Below the pieces are notes generated by a model. The model ran no database searches and was not told the origin of the DNA. It saw only the letters and a list, made by a program, of their open reading frames with translations. Source: an uncultured Planctomycetales bacterium (GTDB taxonomy: Bacteria > Omnitrophota > Gorgyraeia > Zapsychrales > JAHFFX01). Taken from it: a DNA stretch of 64,000 nt. The translations under genes were made by a program, and so were the position numbers. Of this stretch, positions 16,496 through 27,763 are shown one piece after another. The number at the start of each line of letters is the position of its first letter. The first letter of the stretch is position 1. The DNA lies in contig CAZTCI010000004.1 of the NCBI GenBank assembly GCA_964612665.1, positions 142,376-206,375 on the forward strand, given 5' to 3'.

Positions 16496-17308
16496 ATGCC
16501 CGAACTCCCTGAAGTTGAGACAATCAAACGCTCGCTTGCTGTTAAAATAACCGGTCAAAGAATTCTAAAAGTCACCGTGCACGATGACCGTGTTTTGCGC
16601 AATTGTTCTGCCAGCGTTTTTATGAAGACTTTAACCGGACGGACGTTTAAGGACATTTCCCGCCGGGGCAAGGCGCTCATTTTTAGTTTTAATGAACCTG
16701 GATTCATGGTGGTTCAACCGATGATGACCGGCCAGCTCATTTTTTCTCAAACACCTTCGCAACCCCAGATAAAAATCGTTTTCCACCTTTCCAACGGAAA
16801 TTATTTACTTTATAATGACCAACGGCTTTTTGGCCGGATTAATTTTTATCAGGACTTAAAAGAGATGGATTTTTTGAAAACGTTAGGTCCTGAACCGTTC
16901 GGCCCGGAATTTAATAGCGATTGGTTGCAAGAAAAATTAGCCAAACGGAAGGTCCCGATCAAATCATTGCTTTTGAATCAACAAATTGTCGCCGGGATTG
17001 GTAATATTTACGCGTGCGAGATTTTATTCGATTGCGGCATCAATCCCAAACGGCCGGCGCAGCGATTGAAAAAGCAAGAGATTAAAGCGCTCATTGACGC
17101 CACAACGGCGATTCTTCAAAAAGCTATCCACGAACGCGGAACATCGATGCATACTTACGTGGATGGCGAAGGGCAAAAAGGAAATTTTATAAAACGTATT
17201 AAAGTTTACGGCCGAGAGAACGAACCTTGTGTGAAATGCCGGCGGCCTATCGAACGGATTGTTCAGTCCGGCCGCAGTACTTTTTATTGCCGTCGGTGTC
17301 AGCGGTAG
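16496..17308 (+). CDS. mutM: formamidopyrimidine-DNA glycosylase
   Basis: MPELPEVETIKRSL N-terminus with catalytic Pro2/Glu3. C-terminal CxxC...CxxC zinc finger (CVKCRRP...YCRRCQR). Confidence 0.9.
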   Translation: MPELPEVETIKRSLAVKITGQRILKVTVHDDRVLRNCSASVFMKTLTGRTFKDISRRGKALIFSFNEPGFMVVQPMMTGQLIFSQTPSQPQIKIVFHLSNGNYLLYNDQRLFGRINFYQDLKEMDFLKTLGPEPFGPEFNSDWLQEKLAKRKVPIKSLLLNQQIVAGIGNIYACEILFDCGINPKRPAQRLKKQEIKALIDATTAILQKAIHERGTSMHTYVDGEGQKGNFIKRIKVYGRENEPCVKCRRPIERIVQSGRSTFYCRRCQR

Positions 17309-17411: not shown

Positions 17412-17472
17412 ACCATGTTGATAAGGAAATTCGCTCGGTCCCCGCAAAAGACGCGGGGTTAATTCGCGCTTC

Positions 17473-17503: not shown

Positions 17504-18214
17504 ATGCGCTCATTAATAATGAAACCCCGAATTAAAACTGATAGCACCATTCTTGTTGCATTAGTCGTTTTGACTATCCTTTTACTTTATAAATTCCCAC
17601 ATCTTTATACGCGTAACATTCTCGTCGATGATATTCAAGATTTCATCGGTCTATGCGTTGCTTTGATCGGCAATTTTTTAAGAATGACCGCCCGCGGCCA
17701 TAAGAAAAAGCATTCGCAAAGTGGAGAAGACCTTGTTACAACTGGCCCTTACGCCTTAGTCCGTAATCCAATGTACCTCGGAACCTTCCTCATCGGCTGC
17801 GGATTTGCTTTTATCGTCTGGCCGCTGTGGAGCCTGCCTTTGTTCGCCTTTCTTTTTCACTGGCGGTTTAATATTCAAATCAAGATTGAGGAAGAGCATC
17901 TGTCGAAAATTTTCGGTAAAAAATACCAAGCGTACTGTGAACGCGTGCCGCGTTTATTTCCAAGATTAAATGAACTCGTTCAAATAAACTTTAAAAAGAC
18001 CTTTCCGCTCGATGAGATTTGGAGTACAAAAGAGAAGCGGGGGCTGATTTTGTGGCCCGTCGCTGCTATTTTTCTAGACGTGATTCAGGAACAATTCATT
18101 TATCACACCAGTTGTTTGGAAAAAACCGTGTTAATTTTTTTAGTAAGCATGCTTTTGATGGGCGCGATTGGTTGGGTTCTTTATAGACCCGAAAAAGGGT
18201 TAAAGATTGTTTAA
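17504..18214 (+). CDS. isoprenylcysteine carboxyl methyltransferase (ICMT/PEMT) family membrane protein
   Basis: GPYALVRNPMYLGTF...EEEHLSKIFGKKYQAYCERVPRLFP is the ICMT-family C-terminal signature. Multiple TM helices. Confidence 0.65.
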   Translation: MRSLIMKPRIKTDSTILVALVVLTILLLYKFPHLYTRNILVDDIQDFIGLCVALIGNFLRMTARGHKKKHSQSGEDLVTTGPYALVRNPMYLGTFLIGCGFAFIVWPLWSLPLFAFLFHWRFNIQIKIEEEHLSKIFGKKYQAYCERVPRLFPRLNELVQINFKKTFPLDEIWSTKEKRGLILWPVAAIFLDVIQEQFIYHTSCLEKTVLIFLVSMLLMGAIGWVLYRPEKGLKIV

Positions 18215-24215: not shown

Positions 24216-24288
24216 GGGCGGTTAGCTCAGTTGGTAGAGCATCTGACTTACATTCAGAAGGCCGTTGGTTCGAGACCAGCACCGCCCA
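24216..24288 (+). tRNA. tRNA-Val (anticodon TAC)
   Basis: Manual fold: acceptor gggcggt/accgccc, D stem gctc/gagc, anticodon stem tctga/tcaga with loop cuUACau, T loop ttcgaga. Confidence 0.85.
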
Positions 24289-24311
24289 TTTAATAAACGT
24301 ACGATTTATAT

Positions 24312-24340
24312 TTGACAACGTACGCCTCGTAATTTATACT
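24312..24340 (+). promoter_or_regulatory. sigma70-like promoter (TTGACA-N17-TATACT) with flanking ACGTACG repeats, upstream of the TA pair
   Basis: -35 at 24312..24317, -10 at 24335..24340. Direct repeats aacgtacg on both sides of the -35. GGAGG RBS at 24348. Confidence 0.5.
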
Positions 24341-24361
24341 TCGGGTTAGGAGGTAATAATC

Positions 24362-24589
24362 ATGATTAAGCCATCTCAATTTAGAGAAGATATCTATAAT
24401 TTACTCGATCGTGTTATCGAGACAGGAGTTCCTCTGGAAATTAAAAGAAAAGGAAAAGTATTGAAAGTTATGTTGGATAAGAAAGTCAGCAAATTGAGTA
24501 ATCTGAAAAAAAGAAATGTCATGTCAGCCCCGCCTGATTATTATGTTCACTTAGACTGGTCTAAAGAATGGCAATATAAAGATCGATGA
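24362..24589 (+). CDS. type II antitoxin, Phd/YefM-like
   Basis: 75 aa. N-terminal IKPSQFREDIYNLLDRVIETGVPLEIKRKGK resembles the Phd/YefM antitoxin fold. ATGA overlap with the downstream PIN gene. Confidence 0.55.
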   Translation: MIKPSQFREDIYNLLDRVIETGVPLEIKRKGKVLKVMLDKKVSKLSNLKKRNVMSAPPDYYVHLDWSKEWQYKDR

Positions 24590-24960
24590 TTTATTTAGAT
24601 ACTCATATGGTTTTATGGCTTTATTCTGGAGACGTAGATTTGATATCAAAAAAAGTTCTAGATGCGCTTGATAGCGATGAGCTTTATGTTTCTCCCATAG
24701 TAGACTTAGAGTTAGAGTATTTAAAAGAAAGTAAAAAGATTAAAAAATCTCCTTTCGAAATTTTTGAAACCCTCCATAAAGAAATTAATTTAAAAGTCTG
24801 TAGCAAAGATTTTCACAGCATTATAAGAGAAGCCCTCAATATGCATTGGACCAGAGATCCCTTTGATCGTATTATTGTTGCCCATGCTTCTTTAAATAAC
24901 AATCCTTTGATTACCAAAGATGAAAACATTCGAGCTCATTATAAATATGTGATTTGGTGA
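24586..24960 (+). CDS. vapC: PIN-domain toxin (VapC-like)
   Basis: 124 aa. N-terminal acidic Asp (YLDTHMV), central and C-terminal acidic residues (DRIIVAHA) fit the PIN fold. Classic 4-bp overlap with the antitoxin. Confidence 0.65.
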   Translation: MIYLDTHMVLWLYSGDVDLISKKVLDALDSDELYVSPIVDLELEYLKESKKIKKSPFEIFETLHKEINLKVCSKDFHSIIREALNMHWTRDPFDRIIVAHASLNNNPLITKDENIRAHYKYVIW

Positions 24961-27049: not shown

Positions 27050-27099
27050 ATGCGTTTTATGAAACGGGTAGTTAAAGAAAAATATTGAAATAATTAAAA

Positions 27100-27246
27100 T
27101 TCTTAGTAAACTATTGGCCGATCTCGAATAGAATTTTTACCTGTCTTTATTTCCGGTACTCGCCCTCGAAGCAAGAAGAAGAGAAATTGAAATTAAGAAA
27201 TATATAAAGGCGTAGAGCATTAAGGAACTAGTTGCATTAAAAGTTG
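27100..27246 (+). pseudogene. remnant of a second GIY-YIG gene (3' end only)
   Basis: Translates to ...ALEARRREIEIKKY, matching the C-terminus of the intact GIY-YIG gene at 27351..27611. About 100 bp of nucleotide similarity to 27460..27596. No 5' half. Confidence 0.6.
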
Positions 27247-27313
27247 GGCCCGTGGTGTAGTCTGGTTAACATGTCACCCCGCCTAAGGCGGGGTGAAGAT
27301 CGCCGCGTTCAAA
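27247..27313 (+). pseudogene. degenerate tRNA-Asp-like fragment (5' acceptor and D arm conserved; anticodon arm replaced by a 7-bp hairpin; no 3' acceptor strand)
   Basis: gggcccgtggtgtagtctggttaacatgtca is identical to the 5' 31 nt of tRNA-Asp at 27597. It is followed by ccccgcc-taa-ggcgggg and a T-arm-like cgccgcgttcaaatcgag, then TTTTT. Confidence 0.6.
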
Positions 27314-27350
27314 TCGAGTTTTTAGTAATATTGTTATCGACAACTTTGTT

Positions 27351-27611
27351 ATGTATTTTGTATATATTATTAAAAGTGTTAAAAATGGAAGGTATTATAC
27401 AGGTTTCACGAGTAATCTTGAGCTAAGAATAAAACAGCATAACGATGGTCAAACTAAATCTCTTAAGAACCGTGGACCTTTTGAAATAGTTTTTACACAA
27501 ACGTATAATACCGCATTAGAAGCGCGAAGAAGAGAAATTGAGATTAAGAAATATAAGGGGGGAAGAGCATTTAGGGAATTATTAAATTCAAAAGTTGGGC
27601 CCGTGGTGTAG
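27351..27611 (+). CDS. GIY-YIG nuclease family protein (YhbQ-like)
   Basis: YFVYIIKSVKNGRYYTGFTSNLELRIKQH is the GIY-YIG signature. The 3' end overlaps the first 15 nt of tRNA-Asp. Confidence 0.7.
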   Translation: MYFVYIIKSVKNGRYYTGFTSNLELRIKQHNDGQTKSLKNRGPFEIVFTQTYNTALEARRREIEIKKYKGGRAFRELLNSKVGPVV

Positions 27612-27671
27612 TCTGGTTAACATGTCAGATTGTCGATCTGAAGATCGCGCGTTCAAATCGCGTCGGGCCCG
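27597..27671 (+). tRNA. tRNA-Asp (anticodon GTC)
   Basis: Acceptor gggcccg/cgggccc, anticodon stem tcaga/tctga with loop uuGUCga, T arm gcgcg-ttcaaat-cgcgt, discriminator G. Confidence 0.85.
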
Positions 27672-27733
27672 TTCTTCTACGTTCCAATGTTTACACGTTG
27701 GAGCTTCGAAGAAACAGGTTCCTATGAAGTACG

Positions 27734-27762
27734 AAAGCCATCTTATAAATTAAGATGGCTTT
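27734..27762. terminator. hairpin terminator between convergent tRNA-Asp and a minus-strand gene
   Basis: aaagccatctta-taaat-taagatggcttt followed by TTTATTT. Abuts the stop codon of the minus-strand GT-C gene. Confidence 0.6.
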
Positions 27763-27763
27763 T

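Follow-up and report, generated by a model that had tools for sequence, protein, structure and literature searches.

The window (that is, the entire 64,000-nt stretch of DNA analyzed here) carries two consecutive units, each pairing a gene for a small GIY-YIG nuclease with tRNA-Asp sequence (Table 1). Our data show the following order: a truncated, TAG-stopped nuclease gene, positions 1-31 of tRNA-Asp, a hairpin, and a decaying T arm, and then an intact nuclease gene joined to a working tRNA-Asp. In the downstream unit, the TAG stop codon of the nuclease gene falls within the D stem of the tRNA. Pfam, ARAGORN, and Rfam all agree with the preliminary description, which had this unit as intact, with an 86-amino-acid ORF overlapping tRNA-Asp(GTC) by 15 nt. 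An exact-sequence look-up of the 86-amino-acid protein returned no record. A near-consensus promoter lies inside the nuclease ORF, at 27481-27509; across 30 loci, the best score for such an in-ORF promoter equaled that of shuffled sequences (7.9 versus 7.9), and the feature was common to 4 loci.

Table 1. Features of the two nuclease-tRNA units in the window
Feature	Position	Strand	Evidence or relation
GIY-YIG gene remnant, 3' third, ~32 codons	27162..27260	+	In register 351 nt upstream of the intact ORF
Copy of tRNA-Asp 1-31 (5' strand of the acceptor stem, D arm, and first 3 nt of the anticodon stem)	27246..27276	+	Identical to 27597-27627
Hairpin CCCCGCC-TAA-GGCGGGG	27277..27293	.	Replaces tRNA positions 30-40 (inner anticodon stem and loop)
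Rest of the tRNA copy (3' strand of the anticodon stem, variable region, T arm)	27294..27319	+	Aligns to 27632-27663, 12/16 and 15/16
T run (27320-27324, TTTTT) and 31-nt spacer to the ATG	27320..27350	+	Read from the sequence
Intact 86-aa GIY-YIG nuclease gene	27351..27611	+	Pfam PF01541, E = 8e-16
Intact tRNA-Asp(GTC), working copy	27597..27671	+	Rfam 64.3 bits; ARAGORN 27596-27672
Intrinsic-terminator-like hairpin closing the unit	27733..27763	+	Terminator scan

The nuclease remnant of the upstream unit, which was also picked up by tblastn, translates as ALEARRREIEIKKYIKA, a stop (in-frame TAG at 27213-27215), SIKELVALKVGPVV, and a second stop, and its final codons enter the tRNA 5' copy in the same layout as in the intact unit. 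Homology further upstream (27092-27160, i.e., 5' of 27161) is weak and suggestive, with a score that 33 of 500 shuffles reached. Together with three retained outer pairs (TCA/TGA), the hairpin forms a 10-bp stem (27274-27296; -20.6 kcal/mol, z = -5.7), and its sequence was found once in the window, against a chance expectation of 0.08. The T arm of the copy has one inserted C and one change that breaks the stem, and the 3' acceptor strand is missing; no 3' tRNA fragment was found within 700 nt downstream in the window. Lacking an anticodon loop, the copy does not make a complete cloverleaf, and 27246-27319 was called as a tRNA neither by ARAGORN nor by Rfam, even at E ≤ 10. Alignment in register and translation with the TAG bear out the earlier statement that the upstream GIY-YIG gene is reduced to its 3' third, and the tRNA part had likewise been described correctly (first 31 nt identical, hairpin in place of the anticodon arm, no 3' acceptor strand, and a T run).

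We also considered the hairpin at 27274-27296 as an intrinsic terminator and rejected it: the T run begins 24 nt past the stem, and the terminator scan made no call there. In other loci of the same architecture, 10-60 nt separate the hairpin from the ATG. A promoter scan made no call for the upstream tRNA copy. The proposal that the fragment is a tRNA-derived small-RNA gene with its own terminator thus finds no support in the window, where neither promoter nor terminator was called, the T run does not directly follow the hairpin, and the copy is decaying in its 3' half.

The two units align in four blocks. Identity is 38/44 between 27161-27204 and 27512-27555, 22/33 between 27206-27238 and 27556-27588, 38/38 between 27239-27276 and 27590-27627 (the block that takes in tRNA positions 1-31), and 15/16 between 27304-27319 and 27648-27663. 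Across the coding and tRNA 5' blocks, the two units are offset by 351 nt, or 117 codons, and are thus in register; 3' of the hairpin, the offset falls to 344 nt. These values correct the unit length of ~354 bp given initially. Similarly, a direct repeat pairing 27173..27270 with 27527..27628 does exist, in the form of these blocks, and the wording "almost exactly" applies to its last 38 nt alone. In the coding part, the units are 67-86% identical, and the ORF remnant beside the tRNA block matches at 60/77 positions, against 38/38 for the tRNA 5' block. This unevenness is consistent with an older resident copy having been joined to a newer copy via the tRNA segment, and we infer that the upstream, truncated unit of the window is older than the intact one that follows it.

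It is extremely improbable that this duplication is an assembly artefact (i.e., a collapsed or mis-joined repeat), a caveat raised in the preliminary description. The 38-nt perfect repeat does split short-read assemblies exactly here: independent Logan assemblies from four sequencing runs agree exactly with the window to either side and break at 27268 and 27598, within that repeat. However, these contigs reproduce both outer junctions, and the repeat is therefore no artefact of one assembly. Because they stop inside it, copy-number variation is not resolvable from these contigs. Moreover, the units differ by 14-33% in their coding part and by the hairpin, which makes them distinct sequences, and the same architecture is present in the genomes of isolates, among them Flavisolibacter ginsengisoli DSM 18119 and Terrimonas ferruginea DSM 30193.

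The only above-threshold Pfam match in the 86-amino-acid protein is GIY-YIG (58.5 bits against a cut-off of 22.6, residues 1-68), with no auxiliary domain. In an alignment of 11 homologs, Y5, Y16, G18, R26, H30, and E62 are invariant, comprising both motif tyrosines, the arginine, and the catalytic glutamate; no invariant C-terminal asparagine is seen in this alignment, and its absence, like that of auxiliary domains, is a criterion for Slx1-like proteins (PMC1564403). In a profile search of the PDB, the best matches were the stand-alone UPF0213 proteins BH0048 (1zg2; 8e-21) and EF2693 (1ywl; 5e-16), which have the minimal domain in common with the window protein, followed by SLX1 (~1e-6) and I-TevI (3e-4). 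Judged by these profiles, the window protein is a domain-only nuclease of the Slx1/UPF0213 type, closer to these proteins than to UvrC or I-TevI. An assignment to I-TevI/Seg-type homing enzymes, defined by an N-terminal GIY-YIG domain plus a C-terminal DNA-binding region in ~200 amino acids or more, was rejected given the length of only 86 residues and a score of 16.7 bits against a cut-off of 56 for TIGR01453 (group I intron endonuclease). The description of the enzyme as a "classic homing nuclease" in the I-TevI/Seg sense has accordingly been replaced by the Slx1/UPF0213 placement. PHROG homing-endonuclease families gave weak matches (best, 5e-5), and 50,697 phage records contained three weak matches to the nuclease family; a phage origin of the family is unlikely.

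The protein family comprises 11,072 clusters at E ≤ 1e-10, and the loci studied here are those of its 80 closest members, which were picked by protein similarity alone and come from many phyla; many are from metagenome bins, whose phylum labels may be wrong. A tRNA on the same strand started between -70 and +30 nt of the nuclease stop codon, or ended 0-110 nt before the ATG, in 59 of the 80 loci, as compared with 14 of 329 control ORFs in these loci. Inspection revealed fragments of a tRNA or tmRNA, hairpins, or both next to the ORF in 13 further loci, bringing the count to 72 of 80. The partner RNAs vary (Asp, Glu, Pro, Ser, Ala, Gly, Thr, Ile, Arg, Val, His, Phe, and tmRNA). Across phyla, the nuclease gene either runs with its 3' end into the 5' end of a tRNA or lies just downstream of one, and in every case, one intact tRNA is kept beside the cassette.

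The hairpin recurs as well, in most of these loci. The motif CCCCGCC-N3-5-GGCGGGG lies beside the GIY-YIG gene in at least 35 of the 80 related loci and is ~35-fold enriched near ORF ends. With a 6-bp stem, 52 all-GC hairpins were located in the 6.6% of the sequence near ORF ends and 21 elsewhere, and 51 of those 52 are of the CCCCGC/CCCGCC type. The hairpin substitutes for an entire tRNA arm from the stem base onward. In tRNA-Pro of Bacteroidota, this is the D arm, and in tRNAs for Asp, Thr, Gly, His, and Glu, it is the anticodon arm. Junctions fall at 10|26 in three isoacceptors of Bacteroidota tRNA-Pro, at ~25|43 in Thr, Gly, and His, at a comparable boundary in Glu, and at 29|41 in the window; one identical hairpin, loop included (CCCCGCCATGGCGGGG), appears in Thr, Gly, and His contexts. 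Three metagenome contigs (L085-L087) have a tRNA-Asp/hairpin junction identical to that of the window in differing layouts, with L087 carrying a nuclease gene and a full-length copy and L086 carrying two copies and no ORF. Mismatches in the hairpin stems (3 T-G, 2 C-A, and others, in a small sample) display no G-U bias. At permissive thresholds, Rfam returned tRNA matches alone for the window region and eight related loci, with no family over the hairpin or the hybrids. Judging from this recurrence of one sequence, the hairpin is a conserved signature of the element and no accidental footprint.

Some loci preserve the interrupted tRNA. In the nearest Omnitrophota relative (L003), the native tRNA-Asp is split by an insert of ~580 nt. 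Its 5' part is followed by a hairpin, the nuclease gene, an intact tRNA, and a terminator; next come a T arm, which two hairpins interrupt, the 3' acceptor strand, and another terminator. In L019, a split tRNA-His-like gene encloses an intact, sequence-divergent tRNA-His and the nuclease gene. In addition, 3' tRNA fragments lie downstream in L005, L006, L053, L054, L073, L076, and L080. Other loci are expanded: L008 has an array of five nuclease copies, the first frameshifted, whose units are identical at 357-361 of 364 positions and whose last tRNA copy has both its D and T arms swapped, and further arrays occur in L030, L039, L079, and L006. Head-to-tail repeats of a tRNA (or part of one) and the nuclease with truncated nuclease copies are found in the window, L008, L030, L039, and L079, and nuclease copies are frameshifted or truncated in L008, L030, L024, and the window. 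Two loci (L045 and L086) contain arrays of hairpin-bearing tRNA copies and no nuclease ORF.

The closest protein neighbors cross phyla: the nuclease beside tRNA-Thr in a gammaproteobacterium and that beside tRNA-Gly in a member of Paceibacterota are 72% identical, and an Elusimicrobiota protein and a Saccharibacteria protein, 71%. A single metagenome-assembled genome has copies at both tRNA-Ala and tRNA-Ser (L038 and L044). As expected for homing endonuclease genes, the distribution is patchy, with similarity across distant taxa and degenerate copies. Close relatives of the window locus yielded no unambiguous empty site, and for the region downstream of tRNA-Asp, a comparison with L003 gave no support for synteny (E = 0.008 over 44 residues). 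In substance, the early suggestion of a tRNA-targeting mobile event is supported, with relatives at many tRNAs having partial or complete extra tRNA copies, nuclease pseudogenes, and arrays; a view of the hairpin as an accidental footprint is not.

Collectively, these loci show a cassette composed of a nuclease gene fused to a tRNA, one or two conserved GC hairpins of the form CCCCGCC-loop-GGCGGGG, to which TCCCGC-loop-GCGGGA is sometimes added, and an extra tRNA copy or fragment in which a hairpin stands in for an arm. From sequence comparison, we postulate that the window locus probably represents two units of a selfish, homing-like cassette that lives in tRNA genes and uses tRNA sequence as its homology arms. 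The nuclease would break a tRNA gene; junctions recur where tRNA arms have their base and, within the T loop, after GTTC. The break would be repaired from a cassette-bearing copy, with the tRNA segments flanking the hairpin serving as homology arms, and repair would thereby bring a copy of the nuclease gene to any allele of the tRNA in question. If recombination took place 5' of the hairpin, the hairpin-bearing tRNA would come first, ahead of the nuclease and the other tRNA, as in the window; if it took place 3' of the hairpin, the hairpin-bearing tRNA would come last, as in Bacteroidota. Tandem arrays may then arise by repeated invasion or by unequal recombination between the repeated tRNA segments, the older units of which would decay. 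The element-borne hairpin might either take the nuclease target out of the spare copy or be the site that the nuclease holds. Under simple homing, the adjoining intact tRNA would be a target too, and self-immunity is therefore unaccounted for by this cassette model.

A bolder version is tentative at best: the cassettes might form an undescribed class of mobile element whose domain-only, structure-specific nuclease acts on folded tRNA-gene DNA or on the hairpin, such that an arm is excised at its stem base and the hairpin of the element swapped in, and which uses the conserved D- and T-arm sequences common to all tRNAs as portable homology and hops between tRNAs and phyla. The split tRNAs in L003 and L019 suggest a variant in the manner of a "disrupt and rescue" drive, in which the resident tRNA is broken and a linked working copy is supplied. 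The literature searched, which most subscription journals lay outside, contained no description of this association of the nuclease with tRNA genes and hairpins, and an earlier description is possible.

By analogy, the nearest experimental precedent for the window locus is the SegB-driven amplification of a tRNA-segB unit in phage T6. SegB, a free-standing GIY-YIG homing endonuclease encoded among the clustered tRNA genes of phages T4 and T6, cuts inside tRNA genes at RAWTSGAAC (PMC2330249; PMC13096335), a motif that we read as the complement of T-loop sequence. In T6, it drives recombination-dependent tandem amplification of tRNA-Tyr with a truncated segB (PMC13096335), and the dependence of amplification on nuclease activity and recombination has been shown for T6 SegB only (PMC13096335). 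The window likewise has tandem nuclease-tRNA units with one truncated nuclease, and related loci join after GTTC. However, SegB is a phage-borne member of the I-TevI/Seg lineage with a DNA-binding region at its C terminus, whereas the window protein is domain-only and chromosomal, and neither a conserved hairpin nor arm-replaced tRNA copies are reported for SegB in PMC2330249 or PMC13096335. On the side of the protein family, the structure-specific nuclease SLX1 has branched and stem-loop DNA as its substrates and maintains rDNA repeat number (as summarized in PMC1564403), and prokaryotic Slx1-like proteins have been treated as vertically inherited repair enzymes (PMC1564403). In the literature on Slx1-like/UPF0213 proteins, we found no report of tRNA-gene association, hairpins, or arrays.

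Integrase-type tRNA/tmRNA islands and prophages likewise target tRNA or tmRNA genes, regenerate the tRNA, and leave a partial copy flanking the insert, and in one related locus (L075), the 3' end of a tmRNA is duplicated. The window differs from them in that the insert spans just 0.35-0.6 kb, the 5' part of the tRNA is duplicated, and the spare copy contains a hairpin. The insert holds the 86-amino-acid ORF alone, with no tyrosine or serine recombinase gene. We rejected an integrase-type att duplication since a recombinase is lacking and the duplicated tRNA part is 5' rather than 3'. The cassettes also resemble MITE- and REP-like elements in being short, GC-rich, multicopy palindromes, and the ORF-less arrays of L045 and L086 look like non-autonomous derivatives. 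REP elements, in contrast, are linked to HUH (RAYT) transposases and are intergenic, whereas the window-type palindrome accompanies a GIY-YIG gene and lies inside tRNA sequence.

Among the other readings, an unlikely one is that the hairpin-bearing tRNA copy is a functional RNA, i.e., a scaffold processed by RNase P and RNase Z that shows the hairpin and binds, regulates, or guides the GIY-YIG protein, with the DNA rearrangements being secondary. Replacement of arms exactly at their stem bases keeps the cloverleaf and could reflect selection on an RNA. Indeed, the tRNA-Pro copy of L027 folds as a cloverleaf with an 8-bp hairpin as its D arm, the final copy in L008 has exchanged both D and T arms, the tRNA-Asp copy of L087 is full-length (with acceptor, D, and T arms and CCA), and the Bacteroidota copies match the working tRNA in full outside the hairpin and score 37-48 bits as tRNA; some family members are also fused to tRNA methyltransferases (PMC1564403). 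In the window and most loci of the same architecture, however, the copy ends in or after the T arm and has no 3' acceptor strand, which makes a tRNA-like fold impossible, and the window copy is gathering stem-breaking changes with no promoter called. Complete hairpin-bearing copies in other loci may have a role at the RNA level.

More improbable still is a plain local tandem duplication of the gene and tRNA by slippage or unequal crossing-over with subsequent decay, in which the hairpin would be an incidental terminator or scar and the nuclease immobile. The units are indeed head-to-tail and in register, and the upstream one is clearly decaying. The recurrence of the hairpin and of the arm-replacement geometry in dozens of loci, across phyla and tRNAs, largely refutes this reading; the hairpin is also not called as a terminator and has no T run directly after it, native tRNAs are split around inserts, and identity along the repeat is uneven. 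We assign a similarly low probability to the idea that the nuclease benefits its host by amplifying or repairing tRNA genes (for dosage or to counter tRNA-targeting attack), which would make the arrays adaptive. In phage T6, amplifying tRNA-Tyr through SegB is adaptive (PMC13096335), and arrays of tRNA-Pro copies do occur. Against this, the extra copies are truncated or arm-replaced and so bring no obvious gain in tRNA dosage, that of the window is without any anticodon, and the family is almost missing from phage records.

If the selfish-cassette reading is true, the smallest GIY-YIG proteins (UPF0213), filed as uncharacterized repair factors, would include a large selfish clade that parasitizes tRNA genes, with such parasites in Omnitrophota, Patescibacteria, Bacteroidota, and other phyla. 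It would also give candidate substrates, namely, tRNA-gene DNA and a defined 17-nt hairpin, to an enzyme family that has none, and it would make these loci a natural chromosomal counterpart of SegB-driven tRNA amplification. The cassettes could, moreover, account for breaks in metagenome assemblies at tRNA genes, as at this locus, where contigs of the four runs end within the 38-nt repeat. Certain spurious extra tRNA calls would likewise be explained, in that hairpin-bearing tRNA-Pro copies exceed the Rfam tRNA threshold and ARAGORN takes hairpin loops for anticodons.

The preliminary description had claimed a degenerate tandem duplication of a GIY-YIG gene and tRNA-Asp, in which 27527-27628 repeats 27173-27270 almost exactly with a period of ~354 bp. 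A repeat finder and local alignment resolved real, in-register blocks; their spacing is 351 nt (117 codons; 344 nt past the hairpin), and near identity holds for the tRNA block but not for the coding part, which is 67-86% identical. Similarity further upstream (27092-27160) was not significant, its score being equalled by 33 of 500 shuffles. The downstream unit is intact, as had been stated, with an 86-aa ORF (Pfam GIY-YIG match, 8e-16) whose final 15 nt overlap the single tRNA called in the region. The earlier account of the upstream copy also stands: the first 31 nt of its tRNA are identical to those downstream and are followed by the hairpin CCCCGCC-TAA-GGCGGGG, a T arm bearing one inserted C and one change that breaks its stem, and TTTTT, and the 3' acceptor strand is missing. 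Neither ARAGORN nor Rfam calls this copy as a tRNA. Translation of the upstream unit gives ..ALEARRREIEIKKYIKA*SIKELVALKVGPVV*, interrupted by a TAG in frame. With the retained TCA/TGA, the hairpin forms a 10-bp stem (-20.6 kcal/mol, z = -5.7), and it occurs once in the window versus 0.08 times expected by chance. An assembly artefact, raised earlier as a possible refutation, is ruled out by the divergence of the units and by contigs of four independent sequencing runs that match the window exactly on either side; these end at 27268 and 27598, within the 38-nt perfect repeat, as is the behavior of a k-mer assembler at a real repeat.

Coordinates of features in the window and in related loci (L numbers; positions within each locus)
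Sequence	Position	Compared with	Feature
Window	27161-27204	27512-27555	Repeat block, 38/44 identical
Window	27206-27238	27556-27588	Repeat block, 22/33 identical
Window	27239-27276	27590-27627	Repeat block, 38/38 identical
Window	27304-27319	27648-27663	Repeat block, 15/16 identical
Window	27213-27215		In-frame TAG, upstream copy
Window	27277-27293		Hairpin, upstream copy
Window	27351-27611		GIY-YIG ORF
Window	27596-27672		tRNA-Asp(GTC), ARAGORN
Window	27597-27671		Same tRNA-Asp, Rfam (64.3 bits)
Window	27481-27509		TTGAAA-17-TATAAT (11/12)
Window	17440-17458		Lone hairpin CCCCGC-AAAAGAC-GCGGGG, between ORFs 16496-17308 and 17504-18214
Window	24288-24960		75-aa ORF and 124-aa PIN-domain ORF (gene calls from L089)
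L075	1430-2170		Nuclease gene after tmRNA
L039	1839-1870, 2332-2365, 2747-2780		TGTTATAAT
L045	148-433		ORF-less tandem array, period about 133 nt
L086	71-199		ORF-less tandem array, period about 98 nt
L008	2372-3175		Hairpin-bearing copies called as tRNA
L027	2732-2808		Hairpin-bearing copy called as tRNA
L028	2737-2815		Hairpin-bearing copy called as tRNA
L087	378-461		Hairpin-bearing copy called 'tRNA-Asn gtt'
L012	2722-2817		Hairpin-bearing copy called 'tRNA-Lys', 96 nt
L072	2734-2809		Hairpin-bearing copy called undetermined tRNA

Three side observations concern the window. The nuclease ORF contains a near-consensus sigma-70-like promoter in its 3' part, 87 nt ahead of tRNA-Asp; TTGAA(A/C)-17-TATAAT also occupies the equivalent position in the related loci L009, L020, and L031 and is not general to the nuclease family. 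A lone intergenic hairpin of the same type has no T run behind it and no nuclease gene or tRNA close by. Immediately after tRNA-Val(tac), two ORFs look like a VapBC-type toxin-antitoxin pair.

Only 11 relatives emerged from a protein search, and the first two with genomic context each lay directly 5' of a same-strand tRNA (Ser-tga, gap of 5 nt; Ala-ggc, 69 nt). We then took 80 loci from one-genome-per-species collections, with similarity to the protein as the sole criterion; they come from Omnitrophota, many Patescibacteria, Bacteroidota, Planctomycetia, Marinimicrobia, Zixibacteria, Elusimicrobia, Margulisiibacteriota, and bins labelled Gammaproteobacteria, and represent the closest members of a wider family of 11,072 clusters (E<=1e-10). 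A same-strand tRNA started within -70 to +30 nt of the nuclease stop codon in 37/80 loci and ended 0-110 nt ahead of the nuclease ATG in 33/80; 11 loci had both and 59/80 at least one, versus 14/329 control ORFs of the same loci. Of the 21 loci left, 13 proved on inspection to have tRNA-derived fragments and/or signature hairpins beside the ORF, which brings the tRNA-type association to 72/80. The tRNAs are Asp, Glu, Pro, Ser, Ala, Gly, Thr, Ile, Arg, Val, His, and Phe, and in 14 loci the ORF stop is the TAG at positions 8-10 of the ARAGORN call, i.e., the conserved U8-A9-G10 of tRNAs. The other eight relatives (L060, L064, L082, L070, L051, L057, L067, and L050), mostly Patescibacteria and including a sub-cluster (the first three), have no tRNA sequence or hairpin beside the gene, a link that may have been lost or may never have existed in them. 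At L075, one of the 13 loci, the family member directly follows a tmRNA gene whose tRNA-like 3' end recurs beyond the ORF, its T loop interrupted by an insertion; the cassette thus uses tmRNA as well.

The hairpin belongs to the element. Across 434 kb, the hairpin pattern CCCCG..CGGGG matched 54 times, mostly near a nuclease ORF. The 6.6% of sequence close to ORF ends contained 52 all-GC hairpins with a 6-bp stem and the remainder 21 (~35-fold enrichment), 51/52 being of the CCCCGC/CCCGCC type. Stem sequence is conserved and loop sequence is free, and a second hairpin, TCCCGC-loop-GCGGGA, is a frequent companion. The hairpin substitutes for a tRNA arm, with the junction exactly at the stem base: it replaces the whole D arm (positions 11-25) in three Bacteroidota tRNA-Pro isoacceptors (>20 copies, including isolates Flavisolibacter ginsengisoli DSM 18119 and Terrimonas ferruginea DSM 30193), the anticodon arm in tRNA-Thr, Gly, His, and Glu, positions 30-40 in the window tRNA-Asp copy, and both the D and T arms in the unit that ends the L008 array. 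A cloverleaf fold is retained by the Bacteroidota hybrids, whose tRNA scores of 37-48 bits exceed the gathering score of 29; no Rfam family covers the hairpin or the hybrid copies.

Two architectures were found. In architecture I (the window, L003, L005, L006, L011, L014, L001, L010, and L039), the 5' part of tRNA X leads into the hairpin and a variable-region plus T-arm remnant truncated within or past the T loop, and a 10-60 nt spacer, the nuclease ORF, and an intact tRNA X follow. Architecture II, which occurs in Bacteroidota, Marinimicrobia, and others, runs from an intact tRNA through the nuclease ORF to a hairpin-bearing copy or 3' part of the same tRNA. The full anatomy is present in L003, an Omnitrophota bin and the nearest relative with tRNA-Asp: the tRNA-Asp 5' part, hairpin, and CGAGTTC precede the nuclease gene, an intact tRNA-Asp, and a terminator, and ~110 nt on come GGACGAGTTC, two hairpins, GAATCTCGTCGGGCCCG, and a second terminator, so that an insert of roughly 580 nt splits the native tRNA-Asp. 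A tRNA-His-like gene in L019 (G-1 and C73 present) is split likewise around a sequence-divergent intact tRNA-His and nuclease gene. Seven further loci have tRNA 3' fragments 100-200 nt downstream; the window has none within 700 nt downstream. Junctions recur just past GTTC of the T loop in L003, L006, L039, and the Ser group.

The copy-number comparison across relatives proposed in the preliminary description bore out variation. A metagenome scan found the window junction, with exactly the same join (..AACATGTC(A/C) directly before CCCCGCC-GTT-GGCGGGG), in three contigs; TGAAGATCGCGAG follows that hairpin in L086 and L087. In L087, a nuclease gene with 49% identity to the window protein precedes a full-length hairpin-bearing tRNA-Asp copy, and L086 has two 98-nt tandem copies without an ORF; arrangement and copy number therefore vary among relatives. 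The short ORF-less arrays of L045 and L086, both made up of hairpin-bearing tRNA copies, may be non-autonomous derivatives. In L008, five nuclease copies, the first frameshifted, alternate with tRNA-Pro copies, the units being 357-361/364 identical among themselves and 309/364 to the first; arrays are also present in L030, L079, L006, and L039. In L039 (Margulisiibacteriota), a truncated tRNA-Asp copy whose anticodon loop holds hairpins comes after each of the three nuclease genes, and every unit carries TGTTATAAT, an extended -10-like motif, right behind the nuclease stop and 16-25 nt before the tRNA copy. Predicted proteins with two GIY-YIG domains among the family representatives (P0012, 214 aa; P0013, 205 aa; P0014; P0015; P0018) are probably read-through or fused tandem units.

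The nuclease is not the classic homing enzyme that had been suggested. Its homolog profile matched the UPF0213 stand-alone proteins 1zg2 (8e-21) and 1ywl (5e-16), SLX1 at about 1e-6, and I-TevI at just 3e-4; the NCBIfam group I intron endonuclease model scored 16.7 bits (cut-off 56), PHROG homing-endonuclease families matched weakly, and the phage records searched gave only three weak matches. Given these results and the residues invariant in homologs (Y5, Y16, G18, R26, H30, and E62), an I-TevI/Seg-type enzyme was rejected, and the protein is an apparently active, domain-only Slx1-like GIY-YIG nuclease.

The simplest account that we infer for both architectures is a unit of nuclease, tRNA 5' segment, hairpin, and tRNA 3' segment that would recombine with a resident tRNA gene through its tRNA-derived segments; exchange 5' of the hairpin would give architecture I and exchange 3' of it architecture II, and arrays would arise by repeated invasion or by unequal exchange between repeated tRNA segments. 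In the window, the contrast between the tRNA block (38/38) and the neighboring ORF remnant (60/77) is consistent with a newer unit having been joined, via the tRNA segment, to an older resident nuclease copy, and the older gene, beside the DUF502 gene, would then have been truncated. Nearest protein neighbors can come from different phyla and tRNA types (72% for a Thr-associated and a Gly-associated copy), the same hairpin, down to its loop, is found in Thr, Gly, and His contexts, and one bin has copies at both tRNA-Ala and tRNA-Ser, which suggests an element lineage that moves to new hosts and targets and carries its own hairpin.

The strongest rival is that the hairpin-bearing tRNA copies act at the RNA level, given that arm replacement is exact and that complete copies preserve the cloverleaf; against it, the window copy and most architecture I copies are decaying and lack the 3' acceptor strand. 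That the extra copies confer a dosage benefit is unlikely, because they are the defective ones, and plain local duplication cannot explain why the same hairpin recurs across loci. The recombining-cassette model, with its putative cutter, does not account for how the intact tRNA beside the cassette would escape cleavage.

An experimental precedent for the proposed core step is SegB, a GIY-YIG homing endonuclease of the T4/T6 tRNA cluster that cuts RAWTSGAAC inside tRNA genes and drives recombination-dependent tandem amplification of tRNA-Tyr plus truncated segB (PMC2330249; PMC13096335). We read that site as the complement of the T-loop sequence. On a conservative reading, the cassette, like SegB, would be a free-standing nuclease gene that parasitizes tRNA genes. 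The link among an Slx1-like GIY-YIG gene, a tRNA gene, and a conserved hairpin was not described in the full-text literature searched, which leaves most subscription journals outside, or in the reference phylogenomic study of GIY-YIG nucleases, and there is a real chance that these cassettes are a distinct class of element.

Hairpin-bearing copies were called as genuine tRNAs in six loci, with Rfam scores of 37-48 bits (threshold 29). ARAGORN takes the hairpin loop for the anticodon in L087 and is also the source of the L012 and L072 calls, and tRNA genes are probably over-counted in genome annotations at such loci.
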